A DNA stretch of 24,331 nucleotides from an uncultured Methanosarcinales archaeon (GCA_964413955.1 CAYPUD010000002.1:1-24331), one strand, 5' to 3'; shown: positions 14,710 to 24,331, numbered from the stretch's first letter. Notes: generated by a model not told the origin, from the sequence alone. A program made the numbers and translations.

Positions 14710-14820
14710 CGGACCGGAAGGGATTCGAACCCTCGACCACTCGGTTTCCTTTTCAATTGATCTCTCAATTGATTGCTGGAATTAAAAGCCGAGTGCTCTA
14801 CCAGGCTGAGCTACCGGTCC
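14710..14820 (-). tRNA. tRNA-Lys(UUU) with a 37-nt intron at position 37/38; CCA not encoded
   Basis: Acceptor GGACCGG/CCGGTCC, D arm GCTC-AGCCTGGTA-GAGC, anticodon stem CTCGG/CCGAG with CT-TTT-A, and T arm GAGGG-TTCGAAT-CCCTT. The exons sum to 74 nt. Confidence 0.95.
14746..14782 (-). other. tRNA intron with bulge-helix-bulge ends
   Basis: CTTT (positions 32-35) pairs with intron AAGG, with 3-nt bulges TAA and AAA. Internal hairpin CAATTGA-GAGA-TCAATTG. Confidence 0.9.
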
Positions 14821-17913: not shown

Positions 17914-18105
17914 TTAGATTACAATTCTAATCTTCTTGTCAGAACTGCCTGGTTTTCTGATGTTCACTAATTTATAATCTTTGATATTGTGTTTTTCAGC
18001 ATATGCCTTTGCTGCTTCTTCTGTTTTGAATGTCTTTGGCCTTTTCTTTCGTGGCTTTATCTTTGCAGCCCTTCTTCTTCTCCTTTTTACTGTTTTGTTT
18101 GCCAT
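17914..18105 (-). CDS. Small highly basic protein (63 aa), putative nucleic-acid binding
   Basis: Arg/Lys-rich N-tail plus RPKTFKTEEAAKAYAEKH. Its own TATA box is 30 nt upstream. Confidence 0.8.
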   Translation of the reverse strand: MANKTVKRRRRRAAKIKPRKKRPKTFKTEEAAKAYAEKHNIKDYKLVNIRKPGSSDKKIRIVI

Positions 18106-18127: not shown

Positions 18128-18142
18128 CTTTTTAAGCTTTTC
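18128..18142 (-). promoter_or_regulatory. BRE-TATA promoter for the 63-aa gene
   Basis: Minus strand gaaaagc-ttaaaaag, with the first TATA T at 18135. Confidence 0.6.
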
Positions 18143-18150
18143 TTTAATTT

Positions 18151-18490
18151 GGCTAAGTCAAGTTAAGTATGTCTTTGCCGCCAAGCATAGTATTTAGTTA
18201 GATTTTTTCAACACAAATCTTATTTTTAGTCCAAAAAGATCTTCTGCCCATTTTTTTTGCTTAAGAAAAGACTCTATACCCTAAAACCTGCTAATAACTC
18301 TGCGATTTTTCTTTCAGAATAAAACAGCAACAATATCTGTTTGCGTCCAAACAGGACGCCTAATGTTCAGCTCAAGAGTCTCCCCGCTTCTGCGTTACTA
18401 AGGACATCCTCGCTTATTGCTCATGTTCAAGAGTATTCTCCCTTGCTCAAAACATTTTACAGTACACTTCTTGTTCAGCCTAGGAGTATT
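18151..18490. other. Copy 2 (complete) of the dispersed non-coding element: conserved end motif, hairpin and three ~54-nt-periodic palindromic units (ncRNA, MITE or operator array)
   Basis: ggctaagtca...tgccgccaa (18151-18184), tatttttagt (18221), tgcgat (18301), hairpin gcgtcc-aaaca-ggacgc (18343-18359), and units at 18360-18378, 18414-18433 and 18468-18486. Collinear with 24121-24305. Confidence 0.75.
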
Positions 18491-18631
18491 TTTCTAGTTC
18501 TGTTTTTGTCATGGTTTGTTGATCTGTTACTCTGAGCGATTGTTGGTTTTTTCTTGTTGAGTTTTTGCTTGTTTAGGCTTTTGCCTTAATATTTCATGAC
18601 ATTTATATACTTGTTTTGTTTTTTTTGTTGT

Positions 18632-19225
18632 ATGGACATTAAATTATCTCAAAAGGTCTTCAAGGCTTTGGCCAGTCCCACGAGGATATCTATCCTTAAG
18701 GAATTGGATAGGAGAAGGTTCACGCAATCAGAGCTTTCTGAGAATCTTGGTTTTGCTGTTCCTACTATCAAACAGCATTTGCAGGATCTGGAAAAAGCAG
18801 GCCTAGTTAGCTGCATTGAGAATGGCAGAAAGTGGAAGTATTTTGAGCTCTCTAAAGAGGGCAAAGCTATCCTGCATCCTGAAGAAAAAAAGATCTGGAT
18901 CTTGCTGGGAACTTTTGCAGTCAGTGTTGTCGGAGGAATTATTGCTGCTGCTCAGAGATTCATTTCTCATTCTAGTGCGGATGAAGGCAGGTTGGCTTTA
19001 GCTGAAAATTACGTTGCCACAACAGCAGCTCAAAAAGGAAATGTTGTTTTTACTGGATCCCCTGTTGCGCATGCTTCAACTGCCAATTTTCCTGTCCTTT
19101 TTTTTGTTTTTATTGCTCTGGCAGTCATTAGTTTTTTGGGTGTTTTGTTTTTTTTGGCCAGAAGAAAGAGGATGATGAGGTTGCTGAAATCTGCTGGAAG
19201 CTTATCTGGAGGTAAAATAAAATGA
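18632..19225 (+). CDS. ArsR-like winged-HTH regulator with two C-terminal transmembrane helices
   Basis: FKALASPTRISILKEL...SELSENLG...TIKQHLQDLEKAGLV, with hydrophobic IWILLGTFAVSVVGGIIAAA and VLFFVFIALAVISFLGVLFFL. TATA at 18602-18609 supports the ATG at 18632. Confidence 0.85.
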   Translation: MDIKLSQKVFKALASPTRISILKELDRRRFTQSELSENLGFAVPTIKQHLQDLEKAGLVSCIENGRKWKYFELSKEGKAILHPEEKKIWILLGTFAVSVVGGIIAAAQRFISHSSADEGRLALAENYVATTAAQKGNVVFTGSPVAHASTANFPVLFFVFIALAVISFLGVLFFLARRKRMMRLLKSAGSLSGGKIK

Positions 19226-19965
19226 GATGGATTAATTTTGTTTTTGTTTTGTTGGCTTTTGTCTTTTTTGTTGGCTGCACTCAGCCCCAGACAATTGTTG
19301 TTGACAAAGAAAATACTAAAGACCTGAACTCTTTGGTTGTTCAGGGTGTTGCAGATTTTGACACTGCTCCTGATGAGGCTATAATCACTTTCGCAATAGA
19401 AACTCAGGATAAGGATGTCAAGATTGCTCAGGATGAGAACAGGAAAAAGGCTAATAGTGTGATGCAGGCTCTTTCCAGCAAGGGTATTGGTCATGATAAG
19501 ATTGAGACTTCTTATTATAACATTCAGAAGATCAGGGAATGGGATCATGAAACAAGAAAGCAAGTGGATAAAGGGTTCAGAGTCACCAATAGGATAAAAG
19601 TTACTGTTGATGAGTTGGATAAGGTTGGAGAGGTTCTTGATGCTATTGTAAAAGCAGGAGCCAACAGGGTTGATGGTGTTGATTTTGGGTTGAGTGATAA
19701 GAAAAAGACTGAAGTGAAATCAGAAGCCTTAAGGATCGCTGCTAAGAACGCTAAAACAAAGGCAGAGTCTTTGGCTGTTGGCGCTGGCGTCACTCTTGGA
19801 AAGGTGCTGAGCATCCAGGAAATCGCTTATGACATTTATCCCATCAGGGCTTATGCTAAAGAAGCGGTTATGGCTGGAGAAATGGATGAGAATTTTCCTT
19901 CAACTCAGATAAATCCTGAGCAGGTGCACGTAAATGTTAAGGTCAAGGTCGTTTATGCGATCTGA
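19222..19965 (+). CDS. SIMPL domain (DUF541) protein with signal or lipoprotein-like peptide
   Basis: VVQGVADFDTAPDEA, GFRVTNRI, VLDAIVKAGANRVDGVDFGLS and ALRIAAKNAKTKAESLA. ATGA overlap with the upstream gene. Confidence 0.92.
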   Translation: MRWINFVFVLLAFVFFVGCTQPQTIVVDKENTKDLNSLVVQGVADFDTAPDEAIITFAIETQDKDVKIAQDENRKKANSVMQALSSKGIGHDKIETSYYNIQKIREWDHETRKQVDKGFRVTNRIKVTVDELDKVGEVLDAIVKAGANRVDGVDFGLSDKKKTEVKSEALRIAAKNAKTKAESLAVGAGVTLGKVLSIQEIAYDIYPIRAYAKEAVMAGEMDENFPSTQINPEQVHVNVKVKVVYAI

Positions 19966-21704: not shown

Positions 21705-22667
21705 TTATTGTTTGCTTCCTTTTCTTTTGATCGCTTTCTTTACTGCTTTTGTTATGCTTTTCTCGTCCAGCCCGTAAAGCTTATACAATTCTTCCGCTTT
21801 CCCTGACTGACCAAATCTGTCTTTTACGCCTATGAATTCTATTGGCACAGGGTATTCCTGAGAGAGCATTTCTGCAACTGCGCTTCCTAATCCTCCTGCA
21901 ATCTGGTGTTCTTCTGCTGTCACTATAGCTTTTGTTCTTTTTGCGAATTGAATTATTTCTCTGTCAAGAGGCTTTATTGTGTGGCAGTCTATCACGCTCA
22001 CTTTAATACCTTCTTTTTCCAGTGTTTTTGCTGCGTTTAATGCTTTTTCTACCATGTATCCTGTTGCGATTATTGTTGCATCCTTTCCTCTCTTTAGGAC
22101 ATTGATTTTTCCTATCTCAAACTTATCTGTCATTCTTGTTATTATGTTTGCTTTTGCTCTTCCTAATCTCAGATAGCATGGCCCTTTTATTATCTTTAGC
22201 ATTGCTTTTGTTGCTTTCTTTGCTTCATTGTAGTCGCAGGGTGATATGACTGTCATGTTTGGCATTGTCCTCATAATTGCTATATCCTCAAGTGCTTGGT
22301 GTGTCGCGCCGTCCTCTCCTGTGTTTATTCCACAGTGTGTTGCAGCAATTTTTACATCAGCTTGATTGTAGCAGACGTTTATCCTTATCTGGTCGAGTGT
22401 TCTTCCTGGTGTGAATACCCCAAAGCTTGTTGTCACTGCGGTCTTGCCTGCTAGTGCCAGTCCTGCTGCTATGCCTATCATATTTTGTTCTGCCACGCCG
22501 CATTCAATGAATTGTTCAGGAAATTTTTCTGAGAATTCTTTTACTCTTGTGCTTTCTCTTAGGTCTGCTGTCAGGACTATCAAATCTTTTTTTTTCTTTC
22601 CTTCTTCTAGCAGAGCTTCTCCAAATCCTTGCCTTGTTGATTTTTTTTCTTTCATTTTTTCTTTCAT
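21705..22667 (-). CDS. Transketolase, C-terminal (pyrimidine-binding) subunit
   Basis: GVAEQNMIGIAAGLA, GEDGATHQALED and AEEHQIAGGLGSAVAE. Confidence 0.96.
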   Translation of the reverse strand: MKEKMKEKKSTRQGFGEALLEEGKKKKDLIVLTADLRESTRVKEFSEKFPEQFIECGVAEQNMIGIAAGLALAGKTAVTTSFGVFTPGRTLDQIRINVCYNQADVKIAATHCGINTGEDGATHQALEDIAIMRTMPNMTVISPCDYNEAKKATKAMLKIIKGPCYLRLGRAKANIITRMTDKFEIGKINVLKRGKDATIIATGYMVEKALNAAKTLEKEGIKVSVIDCHTIKPLDREIIQFAKRTKAIVTAEEHQIAGGLGSAVAEMLSQEYPVPIEFIGVKDRFGQSGKAEELYKLYGLDEKSITKAVKKAIKRKGSKQ

Positions 22668-22780
22668 TTTGAGACTGTTTTGGCTTTTTTAGCCATCGCA
22701 TTGATTTTTGTTGTTAGGAATAGACCAGCATTATCATCTTCTGCTTGTTGCGTAAATTGTTGCATGAATGATTGTGTGAT

Positions 22781-22794
22781 GAAAAGGTTTAAAT
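22781..22794 (+). promoter_or_regulatory. BRE-TATA promoter for the LMW-PTP gene
   Basis: gaaaagg-tttaaat about 32 nt before ATG 22820. Confidence 0.55.
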
Positions 22795-22819
22795 CTTGTT
22801 CAGGATTTATTTTGCCTGT

Positions 22820-23143
22820 ATGAAATTGTTGTTTATCTGCAATCAGAATAAGAATCGGAGCAGAACTGCTGAGATGATCTTCAAAGGCAGGTTCGAGACA
22901 AGGTCTGCTGGCCTTTACTGCGCTGAGCCTGTTTCTGAAGAGCAGGTCTCTTGGGCTGATATTGTTTTTGTTATGGAGGATGCTCAACGCAGTGAGCTTG
23001 CCAGAAGGTTCCCTAAGCAGTATCTGCTTAAGAGGATCATTTCTCTGAATATTCCTGATGTTTTCCATTTCAATCAGCCTGAGCTTATTGATATCCTCAA
23101 AGCAAAAGTTGGGGATGTTTTGGCAGGCCTGCATATTTCCTAG
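22820..23143 (+). CDS. Low-molecular-weight protein tyrosine phosphatase-like protein
   Basis: LLFICNQNKNRS (Cx5R-S P-loop), RSAG, WADIVFVME and LNIPD. Confidence 0.9.
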   Translation: MKLLFICNQNKNRSRTAEMIFKGRFETRSAGLYCAEPVSEEQVSWADIVFVMEDAQRSELARRFPKQYLLKRIISLNIPDVFHFNQPELIDILKAKVGDVLAGLHIS

Positions 23144-23243
23144 CGCTTTTCGATTCTGCTTTTTTGTTCTCATGTTTTTTTGTCGCATTTTTTTTGTCTT
23201 GTCTTTTTTACTCTTCTTCATTACGCATCTCTTTTTGATGATC

Positions 23244-24071
23244 TTATCTTTCGCCAAGTTCTTTCAGGGCAAGTTTGGCTTGCGCTTCATCTGGCGCTTT
23301 GCCATGCCATTCGCTTTTTCCTTCCATGAAGCTGACTCCTTTTCCAGGAATTGTGTTGGCTATTATCGCTGTTGGCTTTCCTTTTGTTTTTCTTGCCTGT
23401 ACGCATGCTTTTATGATCTCCTGTATCTTATTCCCGTCTATTTCTATCACGTTCCATTTGAATGCAATGTATTTTTTCTTGAGAGACTCTAATGGCATTA
23501 TTGCTCTTGTTTTTCCGCTTAATTGGATGTGGTTCCTGTCTATTATGTTTATCAGATTGTCAAGCTTGTTGTTTCCTGCAAACATTATCGCTTCCCAGGT
23601 GTTTCCTTCATCATGGTCTCCGTCGCTCGTTATGCAGAACACTTTTGCCTTGTTCTTGTCCATCTTCAAAGCAAGAGCCTCTCCTATTGCTATGCTTAAG
23701 TTTAATCCTAATGGTCCTGAGCTTGATTCTAGTGCTGGAAGATCAACATAACTAGGATGGCCTTGTAGTCTGCTTCCTAATTTTCGCAGTTCTAAAAGTT
23801 CTTTTTTTGGGAAGTATCCTGCATAAGCCATTGCCGCATATCTTGCTGGACACACATGGCCATTGCTTAGGATGAGCCTATCCCTGTTTTTCCATTTTGG
23901 ATTTTTGGGATTGTGTTTCATCACATTGAAGTATAGTGCTGTCATCACGTCAGCGATTCCTAAAGATCCTGCAGGATGCCCTGACCTTGCTTCTGTTATC
24001 ATCCTGATTATCTCTATCCTTAGCTTGTTTGCAATCACTTCTAATTTCTTTATGCTGTTTATTTTCACCAT
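23244..24071 (-). CDS. Transketolase, N-terminal (TPP-binding) subunit
   Basis: SGHPAGSLG, DRLILSNGH, LQGHP, SDGDHDEG...N and TIPGKGVSFME...WHG. Confidence 0.96.
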   Translation of the reverse strand: MVKINSIKKLEVIANKLRIEIIRMITEARSGHPAGSLGIADVMTALYFNVMKHNPKNPKWKNRDRLILSNGHVCPARYAAMAYAGYFPKKELLELRKLGSRLQGHPSYVDLPALESSSGPLGLNLSIAIGEALALKMDKNKAKVFCITSDGDHDEGNTWEAIMFAGNNKLDNLINIIDRNHIQLSGKTRAIMPLESLKKKYIAFKWNVIEIDGNKIQEIIKACVQARKTKGKPTAIIANTIPGKGVSFMEGKSEWHGKAPDEAQAKLALKELGER

Positions 24072-24098
24072 CTTTTTTGTTGTTATTGTTCTCTGTTA

Positions 24099-24113
24099 TT
24101 ATAAATGTTTTTC
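24099..24113 (-). promoter_or_regulatory. BRE-TATA promoter for the transketolase genes
   Basis: Minus strand gaaaaaca-tttataa, with the first TATA T at 24105. Confidence 0.65.
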
Positions 24114-24120
24114 TCAGTAA

Positions 24121-24331
24121 GGCTAAGTCAACTTTAGTGTGCCTATGCCGCCAAACGTGGTCCTCGAATGATTTCTTTCTGCATAGGTTTATTTTTAGTT
24201 TAAAACAACATTCTGTCTTGCGATCTTTATCTTCCGAAAAGAACTTCAACAAATAATAAGTACGCGTCCAAGCAGGACGCCTATTGTTTAACTCAAGAGT
24301 TTTCTTCCGTTACTTTTCACAGCATCAAGAA
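24121..24331. other. Copy 3 of the dispersed non-coding element (cut by the window end)
   Basis: ggctaagtca...tgccgccaa (24121-24154), tatttttagt (24190), tgcgat (24219), hairpin gcgtcc-aagca-ggacgc (24264-24280) and unit ctattg-tttaact-caagag (24281-24299). Confidence 0.75.

Follow-up and report, generated by a model that had tools for sequence, protein, structure and literature searches.

Promoter-adjacent MITE-like elements in a DPANN archaeon, probably placed by target preference and selection

The stretch of DNA discussed here, called the window, is 24,331 nucleotides (nt) long (GCA_964413955.1 CAYPUD010000002.1:1-24331, catalogued as an uncultured Methanosarcinales archaeon). It is a piece of archaeal chromosome with a split rpoB, rpoA'/A'' and ribosomal protein genes. 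A protein of the host organism is labelled Candidatus Woesearchaeota in a public metagenome-assembled genome, and the host genome is that of a Candidatus Woesearchaeota, a DPANN archaeon. The subject of this article is a repeated DNA element present in the window in three copies, c18, c24 and c0. The conserved ends of two of these copies lie a short and nearly constant distance from the promoters of neighbouring genes.

Copies c18 and c24 begin with a sequence of the form GGCTAAGTCAA-N14-TGCCGCC. In the window this pattern has exact matches only at 18151-18182 and 24121-24152, both on the + strand, and these are still the only two when up to three mismatches are allowed (0.01 expected by chance). 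None of 100 shuffles reached two matches.

Beside c18, the 15 nt at 18136-18150 (gcttttctttaattt) lead to a - strand TATA box (TTAAAAAG, 18135 to 18128) and to the gene of a very basic protein of 63 amino acids (aa) at 17914-18105, also on the - strand, whose ATG is at 18105. This open reading frame (ORF) is a neighbour of the element and not part of it; it has no Pfam match and is called as a gene on public contigs. Beside c24, the 15 nt at 24106-24120 (tgtttttctcagtaa) lead to a - strand TATA box (TTTATAAT, 24105 to 24098) and to the gene of the N-terminal transketolase subunit (23244-24071, - strand, Pfam Transketolase_N), whose ATG is at 24071. The distance from tip to ATG is 45 nt at the first copy and 49 nt at the second. 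Across 83 called gene starts of the host organism, TATA-like motifs peak at -34 to -29 from the ATG, which puts both TATA boxes in the position expected of leaderless-gene promoters.

A preliminary description of the window had reported a conserved end 15 nt from a divergent TATA box in both places, with unrelated intervening sequence that contains the TFB recognition element (BRE) and with unrelated genes beyond. Reading the sequence bears this out. The two stretches of 15 nt are unrelated, and each ends in a BRE-like hexamer, AAAAGC (18141 to 18136) at c18 and AAAACA (24111 to 24106) at c24, so that hexamer and TATA box together occupy 18128-18141 and 24098-24111. One of the two genes is without a Pfam match and the other encodes Transketolase_N. 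The same description called both copies full, which they are not: neither has a recognizable right terminal repeat, and c24 runs past the end of the window.

The conserved end of c18 (GGCTAAGTCAAGTTAAGTATGTCTTTGCCGCCAAGCATAG) extends over 18151-18190 on the + strand. It contains the exact pattern and matches a profile of the terminal inverted repeats (TIRs) of the family with E = 4e-11. It is followed by an AT-rich leader (18191-18342) with T-runs and one leader unit (..AACTCTGCGATTTTTCTTTCAGAATAAAACAGCAACAATATCTGTTT), which recurs one to three times in other elements, and then by a conserved hairpin, GCGTCC-AAACA-GGACGC (18343-18359, repeat family D1). At 18354-18500 there are three tandem units, degenerate and about 55 nt long (GGACGCC-TAATGTTCAGCTCAAGAGT...); the first was located by a unit profile match (18354-18398) and the later ones by reading the sequence. 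The remainder, 18501-18585, is tentatively a decayed right end, which aligns poorly and has no TIR profile match. To judge from its resemblance to the tips of L015 and L019b (GGCTTTGCC, GACTTTGCC; L numbers denote the loci that were compared), GGCTTTTGCC at 18576-18585 may be a remnant of the right tip. The 9 bp adjoining the left tip (ctttaattt, 18142-18150) stand where complete copies have a 9-bp target-site duplication (TSD), and are placed by that analogy. Their possible right-hand partner, ttaatattt at 18586-18594, is a weak and partial match. To the right of c18 lies an ArsR-family gene (HTH_5 match) with a TATA box (TTTATATA) at 18602-18609, about 16 nt from the tentative right tip, and a start codon at 18632-18634, as set by a 197-aa call on contig L001. 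The promoter-proximal flank at this end is conserved in the relative L024 (83% identity). Since that relative already holds a decayed copy at the same locus, the insertion of c18 is old.

The conserved end of c24 (GGCTAAGTCAACTTTAGTGTGCCTATGCCGCCAAACGTGG) covers 24121-24160 on the + strand, again with an exact match and a TIR profile E of 4e-11. Leader, hairpin (24264-24280) and first unit (24275-24323) follow within 24161-24331, and the whole copy, which can be read on contig L001, extends about 200 nt beyond the window to a nitroreductase promoter. The 9 bp at the TSD position (tctcagtaa, 24112-24120) are again placed by analogy with complete copies; no right-hand partner is findable, the right end of c24 being truncated. 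For the right TIRs of c18 and c24 there was neither a TIR profile match nor a convincing alignment; both copies are old insertions in which only the left TIR survives. The third copy, c0, has no TIR. Its distal part lies at 1-200 on the + strand, comprises two units (42-95, 96-143) and a broken hairpin (31-50), and adjoins the stop codon of a - strand gene at 206-1012. Its upstream half, on L007 and L005, has further units and a GCGCGC-AAACA-GCGCGC hairpin.

All three stretches (1-200, 18151 to about 18585, and 24121 to the end) share the unit start GGACGCC-TMTTGTTYARCYCAARAGTTTTCTG... and the hairpin GCGTCC-AARCA-GGACGC. Their missing parts were read from public contigs of the host organism, in which the element occurs at 12 or more sites across about 100 kb, with four copies on a single 31.6-kb contig. 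A metagenome scan with the hairpin pattern found nine further loci, all from one sample. Five copies are complete (286, 295, 495, 520 and 598 bp), and their longest ATG-initiated ORFs are of 24-56 aa. They share one layout: left TIR (TIR-L), AT-rich leader with one to three leader units, co-varying hairpin, one to six tandem units of about 54-62 nt, and right TIR (TIR-R). The number of units varies between copies. The far end reads ...GCGCGGCATAGGCACTAACTCNTTTAAGTTGACTTAGCC, the inverted repeat of GGCTAAGTCAA-N14-TGCCGCC. Left and right arms are identical at about 30 of 37 positions, apart from a constant 6-nt indel, and the TIRs are about 37-40 bp long. The tip sequence is GGCTAAGTCAAC...GCCTATGCCGC; a profile built from the tips finds 15 distinct ones, and left and right tips have the same terminal 12-14 bp. 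Many copies are decayed, and several arrays lack TIRs entirely.

Long copies have an inverted copy of the hairpin and unit near the left end, and TIR-R is similar in its inner part to the beginning of a unit. This fits subterminal transposase-binding repeats or a foldback-like origin, and not a single oriented RNA. The tips themselves come in variants that are paired within elements: GGCAAAG/GGCAAAG in L019b, GGTAAAG/GGTATAG in L020 and AGTTAAG/AGCTAAG in the inner element of L019. Such pairs suggest either subfamilies derived from different master copies or the correction of one end against the other.

The hairpin has the form N6-AARCA-N6, in which the AARCA loop is kept while the stem varies (GCGTCC/GGACGC, GCGCGC/GCGCGC, GCGCAC/GTGCGC, TGCGCC/GGCGCA, TGAGCC/GGCTCA). 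Thirteen variants are fully paired. All 72 stem cells pair, and three of the six base pairs show double, compensatory changes, a level reached in 0 of 500 shuffles, although some variants were found by a search that itself required pairing. A recurrent variant in the middle of arrays, TTATTCGCAAACAG(G)ACGCC, does not pair. A short form without TIRs (hairpin GAGCC-N4-5-GGCTC, about 45 nt, the main hairpin and a T-run) is present at L020:10640-10770 and L024:6220-6330. These are unrelated loci in two organisms, one of them directly upstream of a tRNA gene promoter, and the hairpin module may lead an independent life, for example as a terminator or small RNA.

Evidence for mobility can be found in the flanks of the complete copies. 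Perfect TSDs of 9 bp surround L017 (CGTCGGTGC) and L019b (TTGTTAGAG), and a third (GAATTGCAA, also 9/9) surrounds a TIR-L...TIR-R pair 1.69 kb apart (L019:1878-3565). The TSD of L020 (TTTTTCA[A/G]G) matches at 8 of 9 positions and that of L022 is degenerate (5/9); the inner left tip of L019 matches the shared right-hand repeat at 6 of 9. The L019 pair encloses genes for an ArsR-family HTH_5 regulator (87 aa) and a TauE/SafE permease (275 aa), together with an inner TIR-L. The GC content of this cargo is 0.355, against 0.388 for the whole locus. Because a perfect TSD pair brackets the TIRs and the ArsR-TauE operon, the 1.69-kb stretch behaves like a composite transposon. At the 24121 locus, a relative with 76% amino-acid identity has the same divergent nitroreductase and transketolase genes only 76 nt apart, with 11 nt between their TATA boxes and no element. 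The long TIRs and 9-bp TSDs point to cut-and-paste or replicative transposition of the DDE type, in which a transposase supplied in trans would make a 9-bp staggered cut.

The relation to promoters was examined by lining up, from the tip outward, the flanks of all 15 tips, with gene starts taken from simple ORF calls. Seven of the 15 tips, and seven of the eight that face a promoter, have the same arrangement. Reading outward, 9 nt at the TSD position are followed by a 6-nt A-rich BRE-like hexamer (AAAAGC, AAAACA, AAATTT, TAAACT, TAACAT, CAAGTT or TAACCT), an 8-nt TATA octamer and a start codon. The TATA box is 13-16 nt and the ATG 43-49 nt from the tip (+45, 49, 45, 45, 44, 43 and 45). Six of these start codons open ORFs of at least 60 aa; at the seventh, the right tip of L020 (+43), the contig stops 164 nt beyond the tip. 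Four left and three right tips make up the seven, and the tentative right tip of c18, with its TATA box at about 16 nt, would make an eighth. The sole promoter-facing exception is the right end of L017; all others point at the 3' ends of genes, whose stop codons lie at a distance of 3-81 nt.

The offset of exactly 15 nt given in the preliminary description is therefore true of the two window copies, while for the family it is 13-16 nt and at eight of the 15 tips there is no such spacing. The idea of a fixed promoter offset held in five further promoter-facing ends, which were gathered regardless of promoters. The 15 nt are the sum of a 9-bp duplicated target and a 6-bp BRE, and the insertion therefore stands immediately beyond the BRE/TATA core, about -37 to -45 from the start codon of a leaderless gene.

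Two null models were used to ask how often such an arrangement would occur by chance. If ends fall uniformly in intergenic DNA, 1.1% of them give this spacing, and P is about 1e-10 for 7 of 15 tips and 2e-7 for the five ends that had not been used to frame the hypothesis. A stricter, selection-aware model keeps genes intact (the 9-bp duplication may restore a stop codon), leaves at least 36 nt of promoter and places ends at most 150 nt from the start. It expects 8.7% of permitted positions to qualify and gives P = 2.7e-5 for at least five of six independent ends. Under this model P ranges from 2.7e-5 to 2.7e-7, to be read with the small sample (eight promoter-facing ends) and with a 43-49 window that was set after the data had been seen. 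The placement of tips about 15 nt from a TATA box is not a coincidence. The preliminary description was right to caution that two cases could not exclude one; the 15 tips now do.

Taken together, these observations indicate with good confidence that the conserved end is the left TIR of a non-autonomous, modular, MITE-like DNA transposon (MITE: miniature inverted-repeat transposable element). Its position next to promoters would reflect a targeting preference together with selection. The mobile-element part of what had been proposed is supported by TIRs, TSDs, copy number, the cargo-bearing composite and the empty site in a relative. Target choice would be drawn either by A/T-rich, bendable DNA or by the TATA-binding protein (TBP) and transcription factor B (TFB) bound to DNA, and purifying selection in a very compact genome would then remove insertions that break genes or promoters.

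Besides the size of the sample, a number of observations count against this account. There is no promoter at the family offset on either side of L019b or on the right side of L017. Compact sites tolerate only about 12-20 target positions; at L022 the stop codon of the neighbouring gene lies inside the TSD, and c18 occupies the middle of the gap between two divergent promoters. A search of about 110 kb found neither a transposase nor an autonomous partner with matching TIRs, and none of 122 ORFs is multicopy, as a transposase recognized by paralogy would be. Empty sites are limited to the one in the 76%-identity relative: same-species assemblies around the three copies with perfect TSDs are all filled, without filled/empty polymorphism. 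Even at the 24121 locus, the sister lineage L027 (81% identical to the relative with the empty site) has a different array, so the history of the site is either repeated colonization of the gap between the promoters or ancestral presence followed by clean loss. Finally, all the extra copies come from one metagenome, and repeat regions are prone to misassembly.

Two side observations belong here. The array of L027 (L027:8814-9183, GCA_974442395.1) is 368 nt long and consists of six units of about 50 nt, each with a small GC hairpin (loop CTTG, co-varying stems) and a AACTCTGCG-like motif. It is a different or strongly diverged repeat family in the nitroreductase/transketolase gap. Contigs L001 (2457-2690) and L017 (9155-9312), from two assemblies of the same species, are 99.8% identical as far as the middle of a tandem array and then have different flanks. 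Either recombination of copies has rearranged a strain or the repeat has given rise to a chimeric assembly, the latter again a reason for caution about the copies.

The alternative that survives best does without target preference. Insertion would be near-random, and survivors confined between a neighbouring gene or divergent promoter and the BRE would pile up about 15 nt from the TATA box, since the 9-bp duplication restores both flanks. This is possible, though not the likelier account. Spacers in this genome are tiny (many of 0-60 nt), divergent pairs are 8-157 nt apart, and in the relative with the empty site only 11 nt remain between the two TATA boxes. Since compact sites tolerate few target positions, as the L022 stop codon and the position of c18 illustrate, part of the clustering is forced. 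Yet with 8.7% of permitted positions giving an ATG at 43-49 nt, seven of eight is a very unlikely outcome. No tip lies 36-42 nt from an ATG, although BRE and TATA box would remain intact there. Spare spacer of 80 nt at L020 and of about 20 nt at the outer site of L019 was available, and the insertions nonetheless adjoin the BRE. No consensus among the TSDs indicates a sequence-specific promoter requirement at -37 to -45. At L017, away from a gene promoter, an A/T run (AAAAAA-TAAAAAAA) is found at the family offset. In the decayed copies L014 and L018 repeat units reach right to the TATA box; the -45 boundary is thus not strictly protected, and the pile-up is not explicable by trimming alone. 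These four points (the empty interval, the spare room, the L017 run and the units of L014 and L018) argue that compactness is only part of the explanation. Insertion that genuinely prefers the 9 bp flanking BRE and TATA, sharpened by selection, is somewhat more likely than selection alone.

A stronger form of the targeting preference is that the transposase reads TBP and TFB as they sit on the BRE-TATA and bend it, and cuts the 9 bp directly upstream of the BRE. This must be considered doubtful. The L017 insertion near a non-promoter A/T run hints at a feature of the DNA rather than at bound TBP/TFB.

A third account, raised in the preliminary description as an activator site that recruits TBP and TFB, gives the element a regulatory function, in which the TIR or element binds a transcription factor or domesticated transposase in fixed phase upstream of the BRE and so activates, represses or insulates the promoter. 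The TIR would lie at about -46 to -85, in the region usual for archaeal upstream activating sites. Both tips carry the same terminal 12-14 bp and so offer the same site in either orientation. The insertion of c18 predates the split from the 83%-identity relative, where the hairpin persists. In addition, two of the promoters that adjoin tips drive ArsR-family (HTH_5) genes, at 18632-19225 in the window and at L019:2218-2481, which may be a coincidence or a hint at an element-binding protein. Against this, the adjoining genes are functionally unrelated (the basic 63-aa protein, transketolase, an NMD3-like protein, ArsR and others), no candidate binding protein was identified, many copies point towards the 3' ends of genes, and in many the TIRs are gone and the promoters remain. 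TSDs still demand transposition, and a regulatory role, improbable as it is, would add to the transposon account rather than replace it.

It had also been suggested that the same TATA box drives a non-coding RNA. In this reading the box is roughly symmetric, and the conserved sequence forms the 5' end of a structured, inward transcript. The pairing of the internal hairpin is kept by compensatory changes, with one G-U on the + strand, and T-runs resembling terminators follow the hairpin in some copies. These points are outweighed by several others, and such an RNA gene is very improbable. With the TATA box 15 nt from the tip, an inward transcript would begin about 8-10 nt inside the TIR, and on the + strand the T5-T8 runs of the leader would end it within about 60-110 nt. 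Four left and three to four right tips occur at the same promoter offset, so an inward transcript would be the sense strand in one copy and the antisense strand in another, and inverted copies of hairpin plus unit exist within one element. Rfam offers no support: around the element a permissive threshold gave only chance-level matches (E at least 0.4), and at the gathering threshold the only match in the window is a tRNA at 14710-14820.

There is next to no chance that the element is a degenerate CRISPR-like array, as an AT-rich leader of about 200 nt, a palindromic, hairpin-forming first repeat and 54-62-nt repeat-spacer units might suggest, given that the units are alike along their whole length and leave no unique spacers, repeats are not identical, arrays are bounded by TIRs and TSDs and dispersed in many copies of one to six units, and no cas genes are among the neighbours examined.

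Other candidates were tried and rejected. A protein-coding reading, based on a 100-aa - strand ORF across c24, is broken by a stop codon in c18. A tRNA-like minihelix (GGCTAAG...CTTTGCC-G-CCA) pairs poorly in c24 and is without D or T arms. As arrays of C/D-box or H/ACA small RNAs, the units lack proper C, D and ACA boxes or pockets on either strand. Dispersed copies are too many for origin-recognition boxes or iterons.

In the GTDB species representatives the pattern GGCTAAGTCAA-N14-TGCCGCC had five matches, all bacterial; as this is fewer than the roughly 17 expected by chance (a hand estimate), the family is absent from that collection. The viral contigs that were scanned held no element, and the sole match was a conserved phage coding region, found by chance.

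Some further features of the window and its neighbours lie outside the element. The tRNA match (Rfam, 59 bits, - strand) spans 111 nt against a model of 71 positions, which suggests a tRNA with an intron; ARAGORN found no tRNA anywhere in the window. A protein identical to the extremely basic 63-aa protein (MANKTVKRRRRRAAKIKPRKKRPK...) is encoded on contigs from three metagenome samples. A 197-aa ORF without a Pfam match (22664-23257, - strand) lies between the genes for the N- and C-terminal transketolase subunits, which in the relatives L023, L024 and L027 abut or overlap with nothing between. The SIMPL-domain protein encoded at 19222-19965 is 96% identical between the window and L001, against 99.8% overall, and strain variation is concentrated locally in its gene.

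The genomes of DPANN archaea rank among the smallest and densest known. The present one nonetheless carries about one copy of the element per 8 kb. Whatever the mechanism, many unrelated promoters have received, immediately upstream, new DNA with hairpins, T-runs and possible protein-binding sites. Genes such as the ArsR-TauE pair can travel with the element, and it likely shapes regulation and gene flow in these uncultured organisms. For annotation, the family explains the contig breaks here and unusually long intergenic regions. If selection is the cause of the clustering, the tips mark the start of a minimal archaeal promoter, about -36 to -45, at single-nucleotide resolution. If targeting is the cause, the element offers a simple system for asking how a transposase uses a TBP/TFB-bent promoter or A/T-rich DNA as a landing mark, a question that until now could be approached only in retroelements of eukaryotes.

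MITE-like elements are a known kind, and the present ones form a new family in a DPANN archaeon. Prokaryotic MITEs, including archaeal ones (the SM families of Sulfolobus, those of haloarchaea), are likewise short and non-coding, with TIRs, TSDs of fixed length, many intergenic copies and mobilization in trans. A general description places them mostly in intergenic DNA and does not describe an offset of about 15 nt from a TATA box (PMC10969869). The present family differs in its DPANN host, in having no known parent insertion sequence or transposase, and in an interior where leader units, a hairpin with a co-varying stem and a tandem array of variable length stand in place of a deleted transposase gene. 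The literature searched contained general accounts of prokaryotic and archaeal MITEs and of BrickBuilt elements, and none of insertion at a fixed promoter offset in archaea.

REP/BIME sequences, which RAYT (HUH) transposases mobilize, are short GC-rich palindromes that lack TIRs and TSDs and often alternate in orientation. The present elements also have GC-rich hairpins in both orientations, but long TIRs and 9-bp TSDs set them apart, and membership in that group was rejected. With composite transposons the L019 locus shares an inverted TIR-L/TIR-R pair around the ArsR-TauE operon, with an additional inner TIR-L, and a perfect 9-bp duplication. It is the only example, its left element is a bare end, and a nested insertion at the same hot spot is an alternative.

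A closer match in architecture is provided by repeats of the BOX and BrickBuilt type. Pneumococcal BOX elements have the structure boxA-(boxB)n-boxC. In these repeats, too, a leader and a tail with inverted-repeat ends surround a variable number of tandem units, and they are strictly intergenic, multicopy and of narrow host range. The likeness is one of architecture only, between hosts of different domains for which homology is not expected; units are about 55 nt long in the archaeal element and 23 nt in the bacterial BrickBuilt. BOX elements are mentioned in PMC10969869, and BrickBuilt consists of a leader, tandem 23-mers and a tail whose ends are inverted (PMC4596501). Its distance from neighbouring genes is 49-591 nt, with no fixed offset, and it has its own bidirectional promoters (PMC4596501), whereas the tips of the archaeal element stand at a fixed offset from host promoters and have clear 9-bp TSDs.

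The constant offset itself has its counterpart among eukaryotic retrotransposons, a parallel that is offered as a lead by analogy. The integration of Ty3 is guided by TFIIIB at Pol III start sites, TRE5-A and DGLT-A of Dictyostelium insert about 50 bp upstream of tRNA genes, and TBP and Brf1 have their archaeal homologues in TBP and TFB. These elements and the present one would thus share a near-constant distance from a promoter built on TBP and a TFIIB-family factor. They are retrotransposons with integrases and proven protein contacts, whereas the present element, with its TIRs and 9-bp TSD, belongs to the DNA transposons. Its offset lies upstream of the BRE (-37 to -45) and not at the start site, and contact with TBP/TFB is hypothetical. 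If insertion were indeed guided by the bound pre-initiation complex, promoters would shelter the element in a genome that has hardly any DNA to spare, and it would be the first archaeal transposon targeted through the basal transcription machinery, a DNA-transposon counterpart of Ty3 and TFIIIB.

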